Shown one piece after another: positions 6,037 to 48,430 of a stretch of 64,000 nucleotides of DNA. Both the position numbers and the translations under genes were made by a program. The notes under the pieces were generated by a model. That model saw nothing but the letters and a program-made list of their open reading frames with translations, searched no databases and was not told the DNA's origin. The stretch's first letter is position 1, and the number at the start of each line of letters is the position of its first letter. Source of the DNA: Candidatus Iainarchaeum sp. (GTDB lineage Archaea; Iainarchaeota; Iainarchaeia; Iainarchaeales; JAZDFD01); contig JAZDFD010000024.1 in assembly GCA_043808155.1 (NCBI GenBank), positions 10,017 through 74,016 of the forward strand, in the 5' to 3' direction.

Positions 6037-8658
6037 ATGGCAAAAGGAAAAACTGAGAAAAAAGCAAAAATCAAAAAATCAAGCAAGCTGGATGCATCAC
6101 CAAAAGAAATCGCAGCAAGATTAGAAGCTTCAGCAAAAGAAATGGTTGAATCTATTAAGAAAAAACAGGATCCTGAATTTATAACAAAACAGAGGGGCAA
6201 AAGCAATGTGAATTTTGATGAGGATTCAGGTCTTATTGAATTAGGTGCAAAAGAAACAACAAGGAATTTTTTGAATATTGGTCATGCTAAAAAGTTTATG
6301 CAGACAACATTAGTTGCTGAGAAAACACATGATTATTTGAAACAGAATAAAACTGCGTCAATTCGTGAAATCTATTATGAATTAAAACACACAATAAAAG
6401 ACACACATGAAAACACATTTGAAGACCAGACAGAAAGTGATTCAGTAATTGTTGATTTAGAGCATTCAGTTGACACAATCAGAGAAAAACTAAATCTTCA
6501 TGCAAATCCAAAAGGAACTCTTTATGGTGACATTACATTAGTTGATGTTGTTCATAATAAAGACACTTTTAATGCTTCAAAGCTTGGAAGAGGCGGCTGG
6601 AGTATTATGAGCCGAATGGAACCAGAAGAAATTAAAATCAAAAAAATAGATGCAAATTATATCCTTGTTATTGAAACAGCTGCAATGTATGAAAGACTTG
6701 TAGAAGAAGGTTTCCCTAAAAAGCACAGGGCAATTTTAGTTGGTACGGGTGGTCAGGCAGCGCGTGGTACAAGAAGATTGATTCATAGATTGCATGCAGA
6801 ATCAAAACTTCCTGTTTATGTTTTCAGTGTTGATGGTGAAGAAACAGTTGTGATTGAAGAAAATGGCTTTATTAGAAATGTTCAATTGAAAGAGCTTATG
6901 GAAGGAAAAGATTTGCTGAAAGTTGATGGCATTATAGAAAATGAAAGAAGTTCACTTAACGCAAGATCGATGTGCTTTAATGATAAAAAAGTTTCTTTTG
7001 GGCAAGTAAATCAGGTTATCAGACACCCCATTGTAGAAGATTTGTATGAAGTAAAAACAGATGTGGGATATAACGTGAAGTTGACAAGATCTCACAGTTT
7101 AATTGTTTATGATTCTAAAAAACACGAATTTGTTGAGAAAACTCCTTTGGAAGTTGATAAGGAAACTGATTTTGCAATTGTGAGCCTTGATGTTCCAAAC
7201 AATGAAAGTGTAAGAGAAATTGATTTAGCAGAATTTGCTTTAAAACACAGAAATGCAAAAATTGAAGAAGATGAAATTGTGAATGTAAAAAATAAAAGAA
7301 GTCTTCCAAGATTTATTAAAAAAGAACAACTGAATGATTTTTGCAGATTGTTGGGATATTATGCTGCAGAAGGACATACAGGAGATTATGATGTTTGCCT
7401 AAGTTTTAATATTACAGAACGTGAATATATTGAAGATGTTAAAGAAATTGGAAACAGTTTGTTTGGAATTGATGTAAAAGAGCATAACCCACACAAAACA
7501 CTTTCACAGATTAAGTTTAATAGCACAATTCTTGCATCACTATTCACAGAAATTGCTTCAACTGGCAGCAATAACAAAAGAGTACCTGATATTGTATTCA
7601 ATGTTCCGACATCTGCAAAAAAAGAATTTTTGAAAGGTTATTTTAGAGGAGATGGTAGGGTTGATTTTAATGAAAAAAAATCTTCAGTTGAATTATGGGC
7701 AAAAACTGTGAGTAAAAAGCTTGCTTATGATTTAGTTTTGCTTATTTCGCAAATTGGCGCAAATGCAACAATTCAATATCCAAAAATTTCAGAAGACGAG
7801 CATGAAGTTGAAATAGAAACAGTTTCAGGAGTATATAAAACAAAAATCATCGCAAAACAAACGCCATATTTAGTAAGTGTTTCAAATAAAGCAGCTTTGC
7901 AGGTGTTAAAAGAAATTGTTGCAGAACTAAGACCCGAAGCAATAGCACATATTGAAAACAATCATATAAAAACTCCAAAACTTGATTCACTGCCAAGAGA
8001 ATTTGTTGAACATTTTAGAGAAAATTTAAGAAATGAATTTAGAGGAGAACTTGAAAAACGATTACCGCCTGCAACGTTCCAATGGCCAAGAATTTCAAAA
8101 GAAAAATTAAGAAAACTGCTTGCAGAAAGAGAACTTAGTGAAGAACTTGAATTACTGAGAAATATTGCAGAAAGTAAAACAACATTTGCAAGAATTAAAG
8201 ACATTGAAAAAGTTGAAGCAACAGATAAATATGTTTACGATATTGAAATGGCTAATACGCACAGATTCTTTTCAAATTTTATTTGTGTGCACAATACAGA
8301 TGGGGACCCTTACGGATGGTACATATATTCTGTAATTAAGCAAGGTTCAATGGCGTTAGCAGCACACTCAGGTATGTTATCAGTTCCAGATGCAAAATAT
8401 ATTGGGATGACATTAGATGATGTTAAAACATATGGCTTAGAAAATGTAACTGAAAAAATGAAAGAAGGCGACATCAAAAGAGCAAAAGAAATGATGGACT
8501 ATCCATGGTTCCAGACAAAAGAATGGCAGGCGCAGTTAAAGAAATCCATAAGTGAAAAAATCAGAATTGAACAACAGGCACTTGCAAACAAATCATTAGA
8601 TTTTGTTGCAAGGGAATATCTCCCTCAAAAAATCAAAAAGAAAGATTTCTTGCCATAA
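6037..8658 (+). CDS. top6A: DNA topoisomerase VI subunit A, intein-containing precursor
   Basis: SIREIYY catalytic Tyr region, Toprim IET and (VF)TDGDPYG after intein removal, RIEQQAL; directly follows top6B. Confidence 0.95.
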   Translation: MAKGKTEKKAKIKKSSKLDASPKEIAARLEASAKEMVESIKKKQDPEFITKQRGKSNVNFDEDSGLIELGAKETTRNFLNIGHAKKFMQTTLVAEKTHDYLKQNKTASIREIYYELKHTIKDTHENTFEDQTESDSVIVDLEHSVDTIREKLNLHANPKGTLYGDITLVDVVHNKDTFNASKLGRGGWSIMSRMEPEEIKIKKIDANYILVIETAAMYERLVEEGFPKKHRAILVGTGGQAARGTRRLIHRLHAESKLPVYVFSVDGEETVVIEENGFIRNVQLKELMEGKDLLKVDGIIENERSSLNARSMCFNDKKVSFGQVNQVIRHPIVEDLYEVKTDVGYNVKLTRSHSLIVYDSKKHEFVEKTPLEVDKETDFAIVSLDVPNNESVREIDLAEFALKHRNAKIEEDEIVNVKNKRSLPRFIKKEQLNDFCRLLGYYAAEGHTGDYDVCLSFNITEREYIEDVKEIGNSLFGIDVKEHNPHKTLSQIKFNSTILASLFTEIASTGSNNKRVPDIVFNVPTSAKKEFLKGYFRGDGRVDFNEKKSSVELWAKTVSKKLAYDLVLLISQIGANATIQYPKISEDEHEVEIETVSGVYKTKIIAKQTPYLVSVSNKAALQVLKEIVAELRPEAIAHIENNHIKTPKLDSLPREFVEHFRENLRNEFRGELEKRLPPATFQWPRISKEKLRKLLAERELSEELELLRNIAESKTTFARIKDIEKVEATDKYVYDIEMANTHRFFSNFICVHNTDGDPYGWYIYSVIKQGSMALAAHSGMLSVPDAKYIGMTLDDVKTYGLENVTEKMKEGDIKRAKEMMDYPWFQTKEWQAQLKKSISEKIRIEQQALANKSLDFVAREYLPQKIKKKDFLP
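6826..8295 (+). mobile_element. 490-aa cis-intein with LAGLIDADG endonuclease domain in Top6A
   Basis: Begins SVDGEE (Ser1); block B TRSH; LLGYYAAEG and FLKGYFRGDG; YVYDIEM...CVHN/T end; removal restores LPVYVF-TDGDPYG. Confidence 0.93.
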
Positions 8659-41716: not shown

Positions 41717-42943
41717 ATGGCTGAGCAAAAACGCGTACTGGTAATGTGCATTGACAGGGACGATGACCTGGGCAGAAAAACAACTATTCAGGGACCTGTT
41801 ATAGGCAGAGAAAAGAATCTTAATGCAGCCACTGCTTTGGCTTTGCAAGACCCTACAGAGGCAGATGCAAACACAATGTTTGCAACTGTTAAGAAATATG
41901 ATGAATTAAAGAAAATTTATACGGATATTGAAATTGCTACAATTACTGGACACGGGAAAATAGGGTTTCAGGCAGATAAAAAAATAAATGAACAGCTTGA
42001 TTTTGTGTTTGAACAGTTTCCTGCAGATTCAATTGTTTTGATTACTGACGGCATGGAAGATGACCAAGTAATCCCAATTCTTCAGGGGCGTGCAAAAATA
42101 ATTTCAAAAGAAAATGTAATTATAAAACAGGCACAGGCTGTTGAATCAACTTATTACACTATTAAAGAAGTACTTAAAGACCCTGATATTGCAAGAATTG
42201 TTTTTGGAATTCCGGGTTTGGTTCTTTTACTTTATGTTGCACTTGGAAGTTTCTCATTGCAGATAATTTCATTTATTTTGGGTGCGTATCTATTGCTTAA
42301 AGGATTTGGAATTGAAGAAAGAATTCTCAGAGCCTTTAAATACATTACACAAACAGTTTCAATTCACAGAATTTCATTCCCATTTTATATTGGAGGCGTA
42401 ATTATTCTGAGTTTTGGTGTGATTACATCATACAATACTTACATATCAAACACAGCAACTGATTTGATTCTTCAGATTGCAAGTTCATTGCAACCGATAT
42501 ATGCATTTGCAACATTGAGTGTATTAACAATGATTTTGGGACGATGTATTGATGTGATTAATATAAAGAAGGCTTACAGATTGAGAAAATATTTTATGAT
42601 GTCTATTTCTGCGTTAATGATTTGGTTAATTTTTGATTCTGCAACATTAGTTGTTCTTAGGCAGGCAGATTTGAATTGGTTTTTATTTACGATTGCAATT
42701 TCATTTGCAGTTCTTTTGGTGTCATACAGAGTTTCAGCAATTATTGATGTGAGAAAGAAAATAACAAAATTGCTTATTGGTTTGCCGGTTTACAATGAAG
42801 AAGGAATCTGGGTTGGCAAAGTTTCTGAAATAAATAAAAAAACTGATTCAGTTACATATCAAGATATCAGAGATAAAACAGAAAAAAGTGCAAAAAGAAA
42901 ACAGTTTTTACTCCGCGACGGAAGAATTCTTATACAGCGATAG
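41717..42943 (+). CDS. DUF373 family membrane protein
   Basis: [38 protein letters not shown]. Confidence 0.9.
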
Positions 42944-44360
42944 TTTTCTTAGCTACTTTTTTTAGAATTTTTGGTTTTTCGATTTTTTTAACTGTACTTA
43001 TTATATTTGTAAGGCTTTTTATCATCGCATTTTTTCTGCTGTGTTTTACAAATGCATTATTCAGAACATCAGTTAGTGTTTTTACGGGAATTATTTTTAT
43101 TTTCTTCAGTTCAGATGCAGACAAAATAATATCTTCAATATTTGATGCAGGCACAATTAATTCCTCAAAACCTGCTGCAATTGCGGCTAGTGTTTTTGCA
43201 GTTACTCCGCCTACAGGCAAAACATCACCCCTAACACTTAATGAACCTGTCATTGCAAGGTTTTGTTTTATTGGGATTCCTTCCATTGCAGAAATTACTG
43301 CAGTTGCAACTGAAACAGATGCTGAATCGCCCTCAACACCCTCATAAGATTGTAAGAACTGAATATGAATATCATGTTTTGAAACATCTTTTCCTGAAAT
43401 CTTTTTTATGATTGCAGAAACATTCTGAACTGCTTCTCTTGCGATTTCCCCTAATTTGCCTGTTGCAATTAATTTTCCTTCAGATTTTGATGCCGCAGGT
43501 GCAACCTCTGCCTCAATTGGCATTACAATACCAGCGGAGCCGTCCACAAAAACTGCTAAACCATTTACCCGTCCAACAACACTTCCGATGCTTTTGTAGA
43601 CTTCGTAATCTTTTTTTTGCTGAATCATTTCATCAACCATCTGCTGTTCTAAAGTTCTTGCAGACATTTTTGCCTGATAGAGATCTTCAACATCAACAAA
43701 CTCATGGCCTTTTTCTTTTGCAATGTCTCCTGCTGCTCTTACAAGTCCTCCGATGTCACGAAGTTTCAGAGTTAATCTGTTCTTTCGTCCTGCTCTTTTC
43801 TTTGCTTCGAAAATTATCTGTTCGACTGCTTCTCTTGTGAAGTGCGGGATTTTTCCATCTTTTTTAACTTCCTGTGCAACTAACTGAACTAAATTGTCTC
43901 TGTTTTCTTTTGTGTCAGGCATATCAACATTCATGTAAATTTCATAACCATAACCGCGTATTCTTGAACGTAAAGCAGGGTGAACTTTTTTCAAATCATC
44001 ATAGTTCCCTGCTGCAACCAAAACAAAATCACATGGGACTGCTTCTGTTCTTGTCATTGCACCACTTGACATTTCTGATTGCCCTGTAATGGCATATTTC
44101 TTTTCCTGCATTGCAGTAAGAAGTTCCTGCTGTGACTTCGGGCTTAAAGTTGCAATCTCATCAACGAAAAGAACACCTCCTGAAGCTCTGTGAATCATTC
44201 CGGGCTCAACTCTTAAGTGTGGTGGTGTTCCAAGACCGCCTGAGTTATGCACTAAAATGTCTTCTACAAAAAGGTTTCCAGTTTCTGTTGTGACATTATA
44301 CACGTGTCCTTTAAAATCACGTTCAGATTTAGATTCAAATTTAGATTTACTTGCTTTCAT
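42930..44360 (-). CDS. lonB: LonB protease C-terminal half fused to split-intein C-fragment
   Basis: 39-aa IntC then SGGLGTPPH, Walker [15 protein letters not shown], catalytic EGDSAS and GGVTAK; in-frame TAA at about 44412-44414 upstream, so it is a separate gene. Confidence 0.93.
44244..44360 (-). mobile_element. split intein C-fragment (IntC, 39 aa)
   Basis: [40 protein letters not shown]: blocks F and G with His-Asn and +1 Ser. Confidence 0.92.
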
Positions 44361-44438
44361 GATATATAAATACAGGAGTGAAAGGAATAAAAAGGTTGTT
44401 TTCAGCTTTTGTTAAGTTTTGATTTTTTTAGTGTCGAA

Positions 44439-44540
44439 TCATTCTGCAATTACTAAATTTAAGGAAAACATAATGAATCTTACAAATAAGTAAAGGTATG
44501 CAGTCAGACCAGTTAAAGCCATTGCAAGACCGATTTTCAT
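44439..44540 (-). CDS. putative 33-aa hydrophobic micro-protein (not in ORF track)
   Basis: MKIGLAMALTGLTAYLYLFVRFIMFSLNLVIAE*, starting 8 nt after the PLC-like gene stop. Confidence 0.4.
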   Translation of the reverse strand: MKIGLAMALTGLTAYLYLFVRFIMFSLNLVIAE

Positions 44541-44548
44541 TTTTAAAC

Positions 44549-45232
44549 TCATAAATGTTTCTCCAATGATTCAAGACATTTGTCTATTGAAATTTTTTTG
44601 AATTCTTTTAAATAAGATGTTAATGTAGATTTTTGTTCTAATATTGTTTTCATAAAAATCTCATCTAAATTGCCGGGGATAAAGTTAATAATTTTGAAAG
44701 TATCTATACCTGGCTCTCTTAAATAAATCGCTGCCATGGATTTGTATAATAAAATATCAGTATGATTGAAACCTAAATCAACTAAGAGACATGTATCATT
44801 AGAACGGAAAATATTGCCGGCACTTTCAAAAGCAAAAAACCAGTCTGCTTCACCCTGAAAGTAATCATCAATAAGCAGATATAAAGCAAATTTTTGGGCA
44901 ATGTTATTTGCATCAACATTATAGAACTCATAAATACTTTTATCCGACCAGTTTTTATCATTAGACCAAACATCATCGACTATTAAATGAGTTTCAAATC
45001 CTGCAAGAAATGCTTTAGAGTATTTATCTGCATTAGAGATTTCGAATATGGACTGTTTTCCTTCAACCTCATGGGTTATATTTCTATCAGTAGAATTTAT
45101 GTATCTAATATCGGGTGCGATGGCTCCAAAAAAATAGTCGTCGATGTTATCATAATTTGAAATTATTGATTTCTTTTTAAGTCTACTTAAAATTAATTTT
45201 GCCATCCATTCATGAGTAAATAGGAAAGCCAT
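44549..45232 (-). CDS. zinc-dependent phospholipase C / P1-nuclease fold protein
   Basis: N-terminal TH, FGAIAPD, TH and GFETHLIVD Zn-ligand pattern; TATAAA 22 nt upstream of ATG 45232. Confidence 0.75.
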   Translation of the reverse strand: MAFLFTHEWMAKLILSRLKKKSIISNYDNIDDYFFGAIAPDIRYINSTDRNITHEVEGKQSIFEISNADKYSKAFLAGFETHLIVDDVWSNDKNWSDKSIYEFYNVDANNIAQKFALYLLIDDYFQGEADWFFAFESAGNIFRSNDTCLLVDLGFNHTDILLYKSMAAIYLREPGIDTFKIINFIPGNLDEIFMKTILEQKSTLTSYLKEFKKISIDKCLESLEKHL

Positions 45233-45288
45233 ATACAACATCAGTTTGTATAATTTATATTGTTTCTGGTACAGGATTCACTAATAAT

Positions 45289-46335
45289 TTATGTCAAGTG
45301 GATAGTTTTGCTTTGTTCTGTTTCTACTTTTAGCAGTTCTTTTCCAAGTTTTTGCTTTTTTCTTTTGTATTTTATTGCGATTTCAATTTGTTCATATGTG
45401 CGCCTTTTCTTGTCTTTTGCATAAATCAAGGGGAAAACACTATCAAAGAATAAAACTTTGTGAAAATGTGTTCGAAAGAAAATTCTGAAACAATGGCTAA
45501 AATTACCATCTTTTCTCAGTGTTTTCTTGCTGAAATCTTTTCTAATATTTGGAGTTGTGTCAACACCAACAGATTTGCACAATCTTTTAAGGCTTTTAAG
45601 AAAGGTGATATGCTTGCCCTCAAGTTTTTCAATCTTGCTTAAACCTAATGTTAAATTTGTGAAACGATAATTTCCGCGATTGTCAGATCTCCAAGAAGGA
45701 ACAGAAAATTCCGAAGAAATTAAGCCATCAAGAAATGCTATTCTTATTTTTTTGCTTAAGGAAAGAATATTTTTTGGAGGCATATAGGGGGTTGAAACTT
45801 TGTCACCAACTGGCACTCCCAAAGCAACAAACAATCTTATGGCAGCTCTGTCAAAAGTTCTAATATTATAAGAGTGACCATATTCGCCACCCTCCACTAT
45901 GTTAATTTTATTTTTAACAAAAGGAAATATCTCGATAAGATTTTCTTTGAAAATTTCAATATCTTCGATTTTAGAAGAAATAAAAGCCAGTGTATTTAAT
46001 CTTATATCAATTCCGCCATCCCCAAACAACATACCCATAATTCTAAATATTTCTTTTATGTGCTTGTGTTTTGTAGTAAGAGGCAGAAAGCCTGCTTCTT
46101 TTAGTTTGTCAACAGTTTTCAAAGGAATTGGTTTTCCTCTTTTATTAGTTCTAGTGTGCCACCATCTTATTCTTCCTTGTGGAACTCCTAATATTTTTGC
46201 ACATCTTTTGTAACCAAAACTTGGATTTTCTTTAACCAATTGCAGATATTGCTTGTATTTTTTGCAGGATTCAATATCATAATCGGAATATGTGTTAATG
46301 ATGTCTTGCTCTGTTACCAACTCTCTAGCTGTCAT
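45289..46335 (-). CDS. free-standing HTH + LAGLIDADG homing endonuclease (intein DOD type)
   Basis: HTH GYKRCAKILGVPQGRIRWW; IMGMLFGDGG and FLDGLISSE helices; LGVPVGDKV; own ATG with TTATAAA 22 nt upstream; no intein termini. Confidence 0.85.
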   Translation of the reverse strand: MTARELVTEQDIINTYSDYDIESCKKYKQYLQLVKENPSFGYKRCAKILGVPQGRIRWWHTRTNKRGKPIPLKTVDKLKEAGFLPLTTKHKHIKEIFRIMGMLFGDGGIDIRLNTLAFISSKIEDIEIFKENLIEIFPFVKNKINIVEGGEYGHSYNIRTFDRAAIRLFVALGVPVGDKVSTPYMPPKNILSLSKKIRIAFLDGLISSEFSVPSWRSDNRGNYRFTNLTLGLSKIEKLEGKHITFLKSLKRLCKSVGVDTTPNIRKDFSKKTLRKDGNFSHCFRIFFRTHFHKVLFFDSVFPLIYAKDKKRRTYEQIEIAIKYKRKKQKLGKELLKVETEQSKTIHLT

Positions 46336-46432
46336 ATAAAAATTACGATTTTTGCATTTATAAGTGCTTTGAGAGCACATTTCCGGTAAACTCCAGTCAA
46401 GACTTATTCCAAGTTTCTTCGAAGAATAAGAC

Positions 46433-47464
46433 TCATCTAAAATTAGCAATTGCAGAAGCAATTACTTTAATCTCTTCAAGAAGAATTAGATTATCTCTTT
46501 CAGAAATATTTTCTGCTTCTTTGCTTTCTTTTGAAGTGAAGACTTTGTGTTCTGGAGTTAGAGAAACTGTTTTTTCTCCGACTTTAATATCAACTAGCTT
46601 ACCTTCAAATGGTTGTCTATTTAAAGAAAGAATTCTTGAAACAACTGGCTTTCCTTCTTTGTAACCTATAGTATAAAGCTCTTCTCCTGGGGGGAGCATT
46701 ACTGCTTCGTAGTTCTTCTCGTTTCTTTCAATTAAATGTTTATATTTGGAATTGATGTGAGACCATAATTCAATAAATGTAATCTCCTCAAATTGAGCTC
46801 CTTTTCGCAAATAAAGCTTGGAAAAGCCGTAATTACACTGAAGCGGGTCATGTCTAACGTCCCCAAGCAATGAACCTGCTCTTGCACCAGTTCCTTCAAA
46901 AAAGGGAGCAATTTTTTTCTTATCATTATCAATCAAAAGTTTTGGTGATTCGTTTCCCACTTTTGTTCTTAACTGAGACCCCAGCATTGTTCCGACAACT
47001 AAAAATCCGCCCAAAATAATCATTGCTGCAAATACAACATCCGGCACCCACCCCATTTGCCATACAACACTTGCTAAAATAAACCAGCCAATTGGAAGAA
47101 TCAAACTAAACAATCTCATATTGTCTTCTTCTTTTTTTGATTCAAGTCTTTCTTTCTGCAGAATTTTCTGCCCTTCACCTGCTTTTACAACTTTTACTTT
47201 TGGGTTGTTTGGGTCTGCAGCATTCGGATACATTAAAACATCGTGTAATTTCTGAACTGGGAGAATTTCAGCCATTCCCTGTGCTAACATTGATTTTCCA
47301 GTTCCCGGAATACCCACAAGCAGAACATTTCTTTTTTGAGCTGCTGCTTTTTTTATTAATTCAACACTTTTTTCCTGACCCAAAACCTGATTTATGGTTT
47401 TTTCAGGAACATGAATTTCAGCAGTAGTTTTGTAATTTGCAGGGATTTGTGACATATAATACAT
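46433..47464 (-). CDS. lonB: LonB protease N-terminal half fused to split-intein N-fragment
   Basis: QVLGQE, Walker A GIPGTGKS, two TM helices, GSLLGDVRHDPLQ, then intein Cys1; stop after 134 intein residues; likely start 47455. Confidence 0.93.
   Translation of the reverse strand: MYYMSQIPANYKTTAEIHVPEKTINQVLGQEKSVELIKKAAAQKRNVLLVGIPGTGKSMLAQGMAEILPVQKLHDVLMYPNAADPNNPKVKVVKAGEGQKILQKERLESKKEEDNMRLFSLILPIGWFILASVVWQMGWVPDVVFAAMIILGGFLVVGTMLGSQLRTKVGNESPKLLIDNDKKKIAPFFEGTGARAGSLLGDVRHDPLQCNYGFSKLYLRKGAQFEEITFIELWSHINSKYKHLIERNEKNYEAVMLPPGEELYTIGYKEGKPVVSRILSLNRQPFEGKLVDIKVGEKTVSLTPEHKVFTSKESKEAENISERDNLILLEEIKVIASAIANFR
46436..46837 (-). mobile_element. split intein N-fragment (IntN, 134 aa)
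   Basis: Starts CNYGFSKLY (Cys1); block B VSLTPEHKVF; ends DNLILLEEIKVIASAIANFR* with no block F/G. Confidence 0.9.
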
Positions 47465-47509
47465 TAATTAATAAGAATGAATTAAAAAACTTTGGAATGC
47501 GTATTAATT

Positions 47510-48430
47510 ATGAGTGAAATGAAATTAGTGTTTTTAGGGACTGGTGCGTCAAATCCTACGAAAAAAAGGAATCTGAGTAGCGTAGCTTTGAAATTTAACG
47601 GAGAGTGGTTACTCTTTGATTGCGCGGAAGGAACCCAAAGACAGATGCTTCATACAAATGTAAGTTACATGAAAGTGAATCATATTTTTATTACTCATTT
47701 CCACGGAGACCACATTTTGGGTCTGCCTGGTCTGGTTGCAACAATGGCAATCCATGAAAGAGAAGAAGATCTGCATATTTACGGCCCTAAGGGTGTGCGT
47801 AAACTTATTGGTTCCCTTATGAAAGTTGCAGGAGACCAAATGACTTTCAAAATTAAATATCATGAAGTTCCACTAAATGGTGGCGAAATATTAAAAGATG
47901 AAAATTTTTCTGTGCGATCTGTTCCTCTAAAGCACAATACAAAATGTTTTGGTTATGTTTTTAAAGAAAAAGATAAAGAAGGAAAGTTCATGCGCAATAA
48001 AGCAGAGGAACTTGGAATTCCTGTTGGGCCATTGTACAGCAAACTTGCGACTGGTGAAAATGTAACAGTTAACGGGCAAATTTTCAGACCCGAAGATGTA
48101 ATGGATTATTCAAAAGGCAAAAAAGGCAGAAAAATTTCTTATATTGTGGATACAATGCCAAATGAAAAATATTTCAAAGCAATTGAAGATTCAGATTTAT
48201 TAATTCATGAATCAAGTTTTGCAGATGAGTTGGAGAAACGTGCCAAAGAAACATCACACTCCACTTCAAAGCAGGCAGCAGAAGTTGCAAAAAAATGCAA
48301 TGTGAAGAGATTAATTCTTACTCATGTTTCTCCGCGTTATAAAAATGACAAAGACATTCTTGCTGATGCGAAAAAAGTTTTCAAAAATACTAAAGTTGCG
48401 GAAGATTTTTTAATTATAGAAATTAAGTGA
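47510..48430 (+). CDS. rnz: ribonuclease Z
   Basis: FLGTG..PTKKRN, DCAEGTQ, THFHGDHILG, flexible arm GIPVGP, HES, HST, THVSPRY. Confidence 0.96.
   Translation: MSEMKLVFLGTGASNPTKKRNLSSVALKFNGEWLLFDCAEGTQRQMLHTNVSYMKVNHIFITHFHGDHILGLPGLVATMAIHEREEDLHIYGPKGVRKLIGSLMKVAGDQMTFKIKYHEVPLNGGEILKDENFSVRSVPLKHNTKCFGYVFKEKDKEGKFMRNKAEELGIPVGPLYSKLATGENVTVNGQIFRPEDVMDYSKGKKGRKISYIVDTMPNEKYFKAIEDSDLLIHESSFADELEKRAKETSHSTSKQAAEVAKKCNVKRLILTHVSPRYKNDKDILADAKKVFKNTKVAEDFLIIEIK

Follow-up and report, generated by a model that had tools for sequence, protein, structure and literature searches.

Nanoarchaeum equitans PolB and cyanobacterial DnaE are natural split inteins of cellular hosts, in which trans-splicing with a short IntC rebuilds an essential enzyme. 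In these two systems the halves lie at separate loci, there is no endonuclease and the host protein is a DNA polymerase. The Lon intein of Pyrococcus abyssi has reportedly been the subject of a paper. Both the PolB and the DnaE split inteins are mentioned in the available text of PMC2677866 and PMC4760082, and 10 contiguous LonB inteins of Euryarchaeota are listed in the latter (Novikova et al. 2016, PMC4760082). A different arrangement is that of the 'fractured genes' of marine metagenomes, such as gp41-1, NrdJ-1 and IMPDH-1, which has been interpreted as a transitional form linking contiguous with dispersed split inteins (Dassa et al. 2009, available part of PMC2677866). In the fragmented NrdA of phage Aeh1 the gene was split by a mobile endonuclease, and its parts reassemble non-covalently through domains derived from the mobile element, as described in the accessible part of PMC3045599.

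We analysed lonB in a 64,000-nucleotide stretch of Candidatus Iainarchaeum sp. (the window), where the ORF list places the two halves of the gene in minus-strand frames at 46433..47464 (343 aa) and 42930..44360 (476 aa), whose features are given in Table 1. Gene 1 reads ...GDVRHDPLQ and then CNYGFSK...TPEH...ANFR before its stop, with the junction ahead of the Cys, and gene 2 begins with MKASKSK, an in-frame TAA lying 18 codons upstream of its ATG. With a stop after IntN, a separate ATG and upstream stop before IntC, and two genes in between, these are separate genes with one extein each, as the earlier note had claimed in assigning the N-extein, a 134-aa IntN and a stop to gene 1 and a 39-aa IntC with the C-extein to gene 2. 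The exteins join to 646 aa (209+437) across ...DPLQ-SGGLGTP..., close to the 645 or so residues expected there. Gene 1 matches a P-loop ATPase N-terminus (Mg_chelatase/AAA) in Pfam and gene 2 matches Lon_C (7.9e-32) and LonB_AAA-LID; gene 1 covers positions 3-199 of the 608-position NCBIfam LonB model TIGR00764, and gene 2 covers positions 193-606, alone scoring 653.8 bits and exceeding the 516.6-bit cut-off. Judged by these matches, the joined halves are an archaeal LonB with ATPase and Lon_C domains, the equivalog model being fully covered.

Table 1. Features of the split lonB locus, with positions in the window
Feature	Position	Strand	Basis and remarks
LonB N-extein, 209 aa	46838..47464	-	ORF; Walker A (GIPGTGKS); two-helix membrane hairpin (read by eye from sequence); end ...GDVRHDPLQ
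IntN, 134 aa, Cys1 ... TPEH block B	46433..46837	-	TGA stop at 46433-46435
HEN, LAGLIDADG, free-standing gene, 348 aa from ATG at 46335	45289..46335	-	ORF, alignment, AF2, Foldseek
Passenger gene, 230 aa, PLC / S1-P1 nuclease fold (predicted)	44549..45241	-	PF00882, AF2 model, fold comparison
TATA-like element TTTTTATT	44386..44393	-	26-33 nt upstream of gene 2 ATG
IntC, 39 aa, own ATG, blocks F and G, end ...ILVHN	44244..44360	-	ORF; family conservation
LonB C-extein, 437 aa	42930..44243	-	Ser+1 in SGGLGTP; Walker B, AAA lid, Lon protease domain, stop

The first gene between the halves, whose nature the earlier note did not recognise, is the intein's own LAGLIDADG endonuclease (HEN), now free-standing. 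Its listed frame is longer (390 aa) and starts from a TTG at 46461, overlapping the end of gene 1 in a different frame. The motifs LFGDGG and AFLDGLISSE carry the acidic residues D106 and E209, present in 21/21 sequences of alignment A1, in which G105 and G107 are likewise invariant. The AF2 model (pLDDT 90) retrieved I-Tsp061I at 1e-8 in Foldseek, followed by the TliVMA intein, PI-SceI, I-DmoI and PI-PfuI, and on this model the protein is a LAGLIDADG endonuclease with two LAGLIDADG helices, each bearing a catalytic acidic residue, in a predicted alpha-beta-beta-alpha-beta-beta-alpha fold. By sequence, HEN had no match in Pfam even at E 10 and none among PDB profiles; it matched the endonuclease part of the intein-containing RtcB model of NCBIfam (4.3e-18) and shares 32-33% identity with the HEN domain of the contiguous LonB inteins found in relatives. 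The second gene, here called the passenger, matched PF00882 in Pfam (4e-7), and its AF2 model (pLDDT 77.7) gave VIA-align Z scores of 8.2, 7.9 and 7.8 with phospholipases C and 6.2-5.5 with S1/P1 nucleases, the next row being at 3.5, which points to a Zn-dependent phospholipase C / S1-P1 nuclease fold. The passenger gene was also found between the lonB halves of other genomes.

As a free-standing intein endonuclease lies between the halves, the locus belongs to the 'fractured gene' class; the ORFs, the HEN alignment, the AF2 model and the Foldseek matches show at lonB what the definition in the available text of PMC2677866 describes. As in some of the loci presented in that text, the endonuclease is absent from some lonB loci. 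The loci of Dassa et al. 2009, as far as the accessible part of PMC2677866 describes them, are mostly of phage origin, encode enzymes of DNA synthesis and repair, and carry GIY-YIG or Vsr-like endonucleases and spacers of 27-51 nt, whereas lonB is a protease gene on the chromosome of cellular DPANN archaea with a spacer of 97 nt, additional genes between the halves (up to ~4.4 kb) and a LAGLIDADG endonuclease demonstrably homologous to the HEN domain of a contiguous intein that occupies this junction in relatives. The endonuclease type, phage context and DNA-metabolism host that are absent at lonB are properties of the described set and not of the arrangement, and we rate lonB as a new form of 'fractured gene'. 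Unlike PolB and DnaE, lonB has its halves usually separated by 1.2-4.4 kb, retains the endonuclease and encodes a membrane-bound protease. The euryarchaeal LonB inteins likewise interrupt the AAA+ module, but as single polypeptides, whereas lonB is split here, and our literature search found no paper on a split LonB intein.

The earlier note had taken the case to be unique and had suggested a search for the same split in other genomes; the search revealed a clade-wide feature, recurring in independent assemblies of many species. The split layout was found in 32 of the 40 loci examined, with both halves on the analysed stretch in 24 of the 32, and the split is shared by at least 37 of 196 genomes searched across the order (the 32 loci, G047 with locus L049, and G001, G025, G009 and G035), spanning at least 13 family codes, all of the compared genomes being metagenome-assembled bins. 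The C-exteins of the split relatives are only ~70-78% identical to that of the window. The locus is chromosomal, with flanking genes conserved in relatives. The genes between the halves vary by species and include opposite-strand ORFs of 243-461 aa in L025, L028 and L036; therefore read-through or frameshifting cannot rejoin lonB. That a chimeric contig or indel errors have artificially split a contiguous intein-containing lonB is a notion we can hardly credit, even though the source of the window is a metagenome-assembled genome and the public-run contigs at the locus are short and shallow, bridging no gene boundary under a 31-letter rule. Dozens of species show the same architecture in independent assemblies with other intervening genes, the 2.1 kb in between holds two intact genes whose conserved products are under purifying selection, and an exact 162-nt contig of run X1 spans 46280-46441 and includes the stop codon of gene 1.

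The intein halves are under purifying selection like the exteins, with dN/dS of ~0.08-0.15. For the pair L020/L025 the values were 0.14 for IntN, 0.10 for IntC and 0.07-0.10 for the exteins, and for L015/L016 they were 0.08 for IntN and HEN, 0.15 for IntC and 0.08-0.10 for the exteins. Gene 1 had a single match in the genome and Lon_C was found at two places, the second being a 763-aa open frame with protease-domain likeness only; the genome, which is 88% complete, yielded no further LonB, although a second lonB might still lie in the missing part. Relaxed selection with an intact lonB elsewhere, which the earlier note had named as the mark of a recent pseudogene, was thus not seen. DPANN genomes are reduced, and together with the incomplete genome and the degraded HEN of a few relatives this would suit a recently disrupted pseudogene, in which frameshifts and an insertion have broken a contiguous intein in an organism without LonB. 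That reading is contradicted by the selection and recurrence data and is very improbable, since the same break, with a stop or start of its own for each half, recurs across species genomes whose C-exteins have diverged this far, and IntN and IntC are constrained about as strongly as the exteins. Besides, all of the 25 split IntN sequences group in a single clade (SH-aLRT 100) separate from the three contiguous ones, so the split is old.

The ATG at the start of IntC is also conserved with a TATA-like element ahead of it, which again speaks against a pseudogene. Hexamers of this kind (ATTTAA, TTTTAA, CTTTAA, TTTTAT), a set picked after the sequences were inspected, start between -38 and -26 (mode -30) in 28 of the 32 C-half genes and occur at 6.4% of random positions. 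In the window, where the element was proposed from the outset along with the separate ATG and upstream stop, TTTTTATT may serve as the promoter of a C-half transcript with a short leader or none. None of the public RNA runs listed contained the stretch.

We compared the splicing residues across the family. Residue 1 of IntN is Cys in the window and either Cys (12/24 loci) or Ser (12/24), and T99, P100, E101 and H102 (TPEH) are invariant in 24/24 aligned IntN sequences. The terminal Asn and the +1 Ser are invariant in 32/32 split loci, the window reading ...ILVHN and then S, and the residue before the Asn is mostly His (25 of the 32), otherwise Ser (6) or Lys (1). Within IntC, G18, V20-E26, G28, N29, F31, L36 and N39 are invariant in 30/30 sequences. 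The Pfam model PF14890 (Intein_splicing) matched IntN with 19.8 bits at model positions 37-96 and IntC with 13.3 bits at positions 122-155, both below the 35.8-bit cut-off and both on the correct parts of the model; TIGR01445 (intein_Nterm) matched IntN at 0.0022 with 19 bits, below its cut-off of 24.5 bits. The basic head of IntC noticed earlier holds as a family feature, its net charge being +3 in the window and +1 to +7 (median +4) over 30 loci. The acidic IntN tail does not, as the last 35 aa carry -2 in the window and a median of +1 over 24 loci, so of the acidic-IntN and basic-IntC pairing typical of DnaE split inteins the lonB family does not keep the IntN side.

Complex modelling supports binding between IntN and IntC, the predicted complex scoring 0.85 against 0.02 for the best of three controls. 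The mark used was reached by 58/80 solved complexes and by 2/110 mismatched pairs in the benchmark; the three runs share at least 95% of contacts, with a partner pLDDT of at least 77. Split-intein complexes are among the solved structures, and likeness to them may be the source of this pass. The predicted interface would fit docking equally well, and the intein halves might serve as high-affinity docking domains of a non-covalent LonB complex without splicing. Aeh1 NrdA, whose gene was likewise broken up by a mobile endonuclease and whose fragments also have to come together again, is the precedent as described in the available text of PMC3045599, and the substitution of the penultimate His of block G in 6/32 (Ser) and 1/32 (Lys) loci would agree with it. 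However, in contrast to NrdA, lonB keeps all splicing residues, including those needed for chemistry only: the nucleophile at position 1 is never lost, and the block-B Thr and His, the terminal Asn and the +1 Ser do not vary. As an unspliced 173-aa intein would also interrupt the AAA+ module at the conserved DPLQ-SGGLGTP motif, we regard docking without splicing as unlikely.

We consider it very probable, instead, that lonB is a functional 'fractured gene' whose halves are rejoined by protein trans-splicing and whose cassette is spread by its endonuclease. The natural trans-splicing intein proposed in the earlier note withstood each computational test able to refute it and draws support from the recurrence, the retained catalytic residues, the purifying selection, the single lonB found and the predicted binding, from which we infer the splicing itself. 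Gene 1 would provide a fusion of IntN to the N-terminal, membrane-anchored portion of LonB, and gene 2, probably from its own promoter, IntC fused to the remaining ATPase and protease domain. IntN and IntC would form one HINT fold and undergo canonical class-1 splicing in trans: an acyl shift at Cys1 would be followed by trans-esterification to Ser+1, the terminal Asn would cyclise, and an O-N shift would complete a LonB of the joined length with its native junction. HEN would be the descendant of the endonuclease domain of the contiguous LonB intein at this site and most likely cuts intein-less lonB alleles, after which recombination would copy in the entire cassette of IntN, HEN, any passenger gene and IntC.

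The trees are consistent with such spread. In the extein tree, split and intein-less exteins occur as strongly supported sister pairs. With groups picked after the data were seen, AU tests rejected the monophyly of genus g65 (p 0.006) and of family f20 (p 2e-157) in the IntN tree and that of IntN subclade B in the extein tree (p 5e-52). As the intein and host trees conflict, the cassette appears to move by homing. HEN carries a frameshift in L025, survives as a remnant in L043 and is missing from L021, L030, L035 and L036; therefore mobility cannot be ongoing at these loci. Several stages coexist within this intein family: contiguous (G031, G051 and G046, with IntN-HEN-IntC in one frame at the same lonB junction), split after HEN (IntN-HEN and IntC at the same lonB site in Woesearchaeota/Nanoarchaeia), split on both sides of HEN, and HEN lost. 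Tentatively, and with slightly less than even confidence, we suggest that in DPANN archaea the lonB cassette still moves as a composite mobile element, in which a split intein and a free-standing LAGLIDADG endonuclease home between species as a unit and, within a housekeeping gene, carry along cargo such as the gene with the PLC/P1-nuclease fold. In four genomes of the order LonB is encoded by three genes joined by two split inteins, and we know of no earlier natural protein made of three pieces with two split inteins. If true, one LonB assembled from three polypeptides by two different split inteins would be the first such natural protein and would provide a naturally orthogonal intein pair.

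The lonB region of the window is composed of four consecutive minus-strand open reading frames, of which the outer two (genes 1 and 2) encode the two parts of the LonB protease and the inner two a putative endonuclease and a passenger protein. The LonB portion of gene 1 carries the Walker A motif and a two-helix hydrophobic hairpin and ends in ...GDVRHDPLQ, and the tail that follows (IntN) begins with Cys, contains TPEH and is closed by a TGA stop codon. Gene 2 opens with 39 residues (IntC) ending in ...[22 protein letters not shown], after which come SGGLGTP..., Walker B, the lid of LonB and the Lon protease domain. Both exteins were confirmed by Pfam and NCBIfam, and in the LonB equivalog model of 608 positions gene 1 accounts for positions 3-199 and gene 2 for positions 193-606, which upholds the anatomy of a lonB split by an intein as described in the earlier note. 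The Pfam and NCBIfam intein profiles matched the correct parts on both IntN and IntC, with scores under the cut-offs. The spliced product would be a LonB of 646 aa. The genes flanking lonB, coding for a membrane protein and an RNase Z-like protein, also lie beside lonB in relatives with the intein present or absent, and thus the split cassette occupies an orthologous chromosomal locus.

Features of the lonB region and related loci in the window and its source genome (G000)
Feature	Coordinates	Strand	Remarks
Membrane protein gene flanking lonB	41717-42943	+	408 aa
Gene 2, IntC and LonB C-extein	42930-44360	-	476 aa; own ATG; in-frame TAA 18 codons upstream
Passenger gene	44549-45241	-	230 aa
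Free-standing putative endonuclease gene	46335 (likely ATG) to 45289	-	348 aa; 97 nt after gene 1
Gene 1, LonB N-extein and IntN	46433-47464	-	343 aa; N-terminal 209 aa of LonB, then 134 aa
RNase Z-like metallo-beta-lactamase protein gene flanking lonB	47492-48430	+	
Pfam Intein_splicing match	about 6865-8295 (= G000:C24:16881-18311)	+	in an 873-aa frame
Apparent two-intein gene, just upstream of the window	G000:C24:6518-8734		
Second copy of the passenger gene	G000:C14:53595-54281		59% identical; one in-frame TAA

The earlier note had proposed a search for the same split in DPANN genomes, and it was found to be widespread. When gene 2 was searched against 196 species genomes of the same archaeal order (E <= 1e-20), a match was obtained in 185, most of them beginning at the +1 Ser within open frames about 625-690 aa long, so that these lonB genes carry no intein. 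With tblastn and ORF analysis, 39 candidate loci were dissected alongside the window; the split layout was present in 32 of the 40, of which 24 include both halves within the sequence retrieved. In these 24 the IntN is 122-151 aa long and closed by a stop codon, and the C-half genes have an upstream in-frame stop and an ATG yielding an IntC of mostly 39-50 aa. The split was also present in genomes G047 (locus L049), G001, G025, G009 and G035, giving a total of at least 37 of 196 genomes and at least 13 family codes. Relatives of the gene 1 IntN region formed 58 more 90%-identity clusters (209-428 aa) in a large protein collection; the labelled ones were named 'ATP-binding protein' or 'Lon-like ATP-dependent protease' and assigned to Candidatus Diapherotrites, Iainarchaeum or Micrarchaeota, which places the window's organism among the DPANN archaea, and the split intein arrangement is currently unflagged by annotation pipelines. 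In G016 and G140 the two halves reside on separate contigs whose ends lie 2.4-3.5 kb from the genes; these halves could be unlinked, and the contigs are short. The bin of G134 holds two lonB alleles (L042 on G134:C43 and L048 on G134:C44), one being split and the other interrupted at this site by a different intein, contiguous and 429 aa long, which may reflect a strain mixture (contamination is about 3%) or a real duplication. Misassembly, by which the gap between the halves would be an artefact of the contig, is given at most a very slight chance beside this recurrence. Five groundwater metagenome runs contain part of the window (<=0.31 of sampled words), and their contigs over the locus were short and shallow and bridged no gene boundary under the 31-letter rule, which is uninformative either way; no RNA run was among those listed as containing the stretch.

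The residues at both ends of the intein are strongly conserved. Position 1 of IntN is divided evenly among the 24 loci between Cys (12) and Ser (12), the nucleophile being swapped and never lost, and TPEH is invariant in all 24. The terminal Asn of IntC and the +1 Ser are invariant in 32/32 loci, the penultimate residue is His (25), Ser (6) or Lys (1), and the last 22 residues are almost invariant. In the two pairs with unsaturated dS, dN/dS was 0.14 and 0.08 for IntN, 0.10 and 0.15 for IntC and 0.07-0.10 for the exteins; the endonuclease, compared in one of these pairs, gave 0.08. The earlier note had named relaxed selection on both halves together with an intact lonB elsewhere as the marks of a pseudogene. 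Besides the low dN/dS, no other LonB was detected in G000 (1.08 Mb in 35 contigs, 88% complete), where gene 1 has a single match and Lon_C matches just one further place, a 763-aa open frame resembling the protease domain alone, and a decayed lonB is thus highly improbable. An A/T-rich hexamer that begins between positions -38 and -26 relative to the ATG (mode -30) precedes 28 of the 32 C-half genes as against 6.4% of random positions, with a pattern that was picked after the sequences had been inspected, an earlier and narrower TATA pattern having given 7/32; the hexamer fits an archaeal TATA box with a leaderless or short-leader transcript.

The complex of IntN and IntC, modelled from their alignments, scored 0.85, while the best of three controls scored 0.02, and passed a mark that is attained by 58 of 80 solved complexes as well as by 2 of 110 mismatched pairs. 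Contacts were shared among the runs to 95% or more, with a partner pLDDT of 77 or higher. Split-intein complexes have already been solved structurally, and the pass may reflect likeness to these. The model supports binding of the two parts, and binding is also what the main rival reading holds, in which IntN and IntC dock non-covalently without splicing; set beside the retained nucleophile and the invariant Asn and +1 Ser, we consider this unlikely. Overall, the lonB split intein is very probably functional, with trans-splicing as its predicted mode of action.

The first intervening gene is identified through its predicted fold as the LAGLIDADG homing endonuclease of the intein. The protein had no Pfam match even at E 10, and a profile of its alignment found nothing among PDB sequences. 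Its alignment with 20 homologues displays two LAGLIDADG-type motifs, LFGDGG and AFLDGLISSE, in which D106 and E209 are invariant in 21/21 sequences. The AlphaFold model (pLDDT 90, pTM 0.86) matched I-Tsp061I at 1e-8 in Foldseek, as well as I-DmoI and the endonuclease domains of the TliVMA, PI-SceI and PI-PfuI inteins, and by NCBIfam the protein matched the endonuclease part of an intein-containing RtcB model (4.3e-18). Of the 24 loci that include both halves, 19 have this gene (with a frameshift in L025 and a possible break in L044), one retains a remnant (L043) and four lack it (L021, L030, L035 and L036). The junction-to-junction distance ranges from 1.6 to 4.9 kb and further ORFs lie between the halves, including opposite-strand ORFs of 243-461 aa in L025, L028 and L036, and genes of this kind could not be rejoined by any translational trick. 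Repair of a contiguous intein by read-through or frameshifting was rejected, as the genes in between occupy different frames and, in some species, the opposite strand.

The passenger protein was assigned to Pfam Zn_dep_PLPC at 4e-7. Its model (pLDDT 77.7) gave no match in Foldseek; a wide VIA-align comparison returned phospholipases C (Z 8.2, 7.9 and 7.8) and S1/P1 nucleases (Z 6.2-5.5), the next row being at 3.5. Homologues lie between the lonB halves in L017, L027, L035 (two copies) and L041 and upstream of the C-half in L019 and L029, and one in G001, 74% identical, is placed between the first two genes of a three-gene lonB. The family occurs in 25/196 genomes, sometimes away from lonB, and a second copy is also encoded in the window's genome. 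The passenger gene may be cargo, may supply the element with a second nuclease or may have come to lie here by chance.

A contiguous intein is located at exactly the same lonB junction in G031, G051 and G046, and its IntN, endonuclease and IntC are homologous to the three separate pieces in the window, with identities of 28-41% for IntN and 40-55% for IntC (tblastn), and for the endonuclease 31-32% by tblastn and 32-33% in the alignment. The start of the free-standing endonuclease coincides with the start of the endonuclease domain in the contiguous form. A different intein of 429 aa occupies this site in G015, G077 and G134. All 25 split sequences group in the IntN tree as a single clade (SH-aLRT 100) that excludes the three contiguous ones, suggesting a single origin of the split. 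The C-extein tree, built from 48 loci in a sample enriched for split loci, requires at least 14 state changes; it pairs split with intein-less sisters (L023/L006, 100; L053/L005, 99; L031/L010, 98) and a split with a contiguous-intein locus (L042/L045, 99). With groups chosen once the trees had been seen, AU tests rejected the monophyly of genus g65 (p 0.006) and of family f20 (p 2e-157) in the IntN tree, and that of IntN subclade B in the extein tree (p 5e-52). Since the trees conflict and the endonuclease is intact and under selection, these data point to homing as the means by which the entire cassette spreads horizontally, the homing itself being inferred.

Other architectures of lonB inteins were also observed. 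The contiguous LonB-intein region of G031 retrieved 347 proteins at E <= 1e-5, and among the 120 matches listed about 87 were proteins of 668-761 aa with a LonB N-terminus and an intein domain and without Lon_C, labelled Woesearchaeota or Nanoarchaeota; no Thermococcales protein was among these 120 of 347. In 50 loci chosen with one such protein as query, and hence a biased sample (L068-L096, L114 and L115 are Woesearchaeota or Nanoarchaeia records), 28 were split at the same DP(F/L)Q|SGGLGTP junction, 17 were without intein, three had the N-half alone and two were unclear. In 22 of the 28, gene 1 encodes IntN fused to the endonuclease (471-508 aa past the junction) and the IntC gene lies close behind its stop, usually in another frame, while the other six have a short IntN (122-133 aa) and then 1.7-4.7 kb to the C-extein junction.

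A three-gene lonB was encoded in L064 (G001:C1:149000-158200), L065 (G025:C48), L066 (G009:C22) and L067 (G035:C6), and judged from its sequence is predicted to be joined by two split inteins. Gene A comprises the N-extein and IntN-a; gene B (618-665 aa) comprises IntC-a, 71 aa of extein and IntN-b, the last in fusion with a LAGLIDADG endonuclease (HEN-b); and gene C (402-405 aa), starting 1-17 nt before the gene B stop, comprises IntC-b (...VHN) followed by CDFVLVAAG... and the rest of LonB. IntC-b was found in open frames of 402-433 aa in 9/196 genomes, four of which were inspected in full. Gene A of G001 (L064 2363-4771, 802 aa) has an insert of ~410 aa between the P-loop region and the rest of the N-extein, probably a third, contiguous intein of the same lonB. 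In L049 (G047:C16:2900-9300) gene A consists of the N-extein and IntN-a, and gene B (990 aa) of IntC-a, an extein stretch of just 14 aa, a second intein, contiguous and at a different site, and the rest of LonB. The source genome of the window is itself intein-rich, with 12 Pfam Intein_splicing matches that fall in at least six further open frames, 606-1380 aa long.

Natural split inteins have been known from cyanobacteria, one nanoarchaeon and phages, and to our knowledge they are few and almost all in enzymes of DNA replication or repair. The accessible text of Novikova et al. 2016 lists 10 LonB inteins, all from Euryarchaeota, and mentions no split one, and a full-text literature search, covering papers outside subscription-only access, found none on a split LonB intein. 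The window locus shares its layout of extein-IntN, free-standing endonuclease gene and IntC-extein with the fractured genes in the accessible text of Dassa et al. 2009 (PMC2677866). The set presented there differs in its host (phage rather than cellular DPANN archaea), its host gene (a DNA enzyme rather than a membrane protease) and its endonuclease (GIY-YIG or Vsr-like rather than LAGLIDADG), and unlike that set the lonB arrangement carries additional genes and has contiguous relatives that can be seen at this very site. As one gene family displays contiguous, endonuclease-fused split, free-standing endonuclease and endonuclease-less forms, the origin model for split inteins in figure 5 of the same paper becomes directly testable on real sequences. 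The family also provides a resource of dozens of divergent split inteins of mesophilic origin, with Cys1 or Ser1 and a Ser+1 junction, and the natural tandem intein pair on one protein offers candidate orthogonal ligation tools. Proteostasis in these reduced organisms may regularly involve obligatory protein trans-splicing, since here the split intein belongs to an AAA+ protease anchored in the membrane of cellular archaea and occurs commonly among DPANN lineages.
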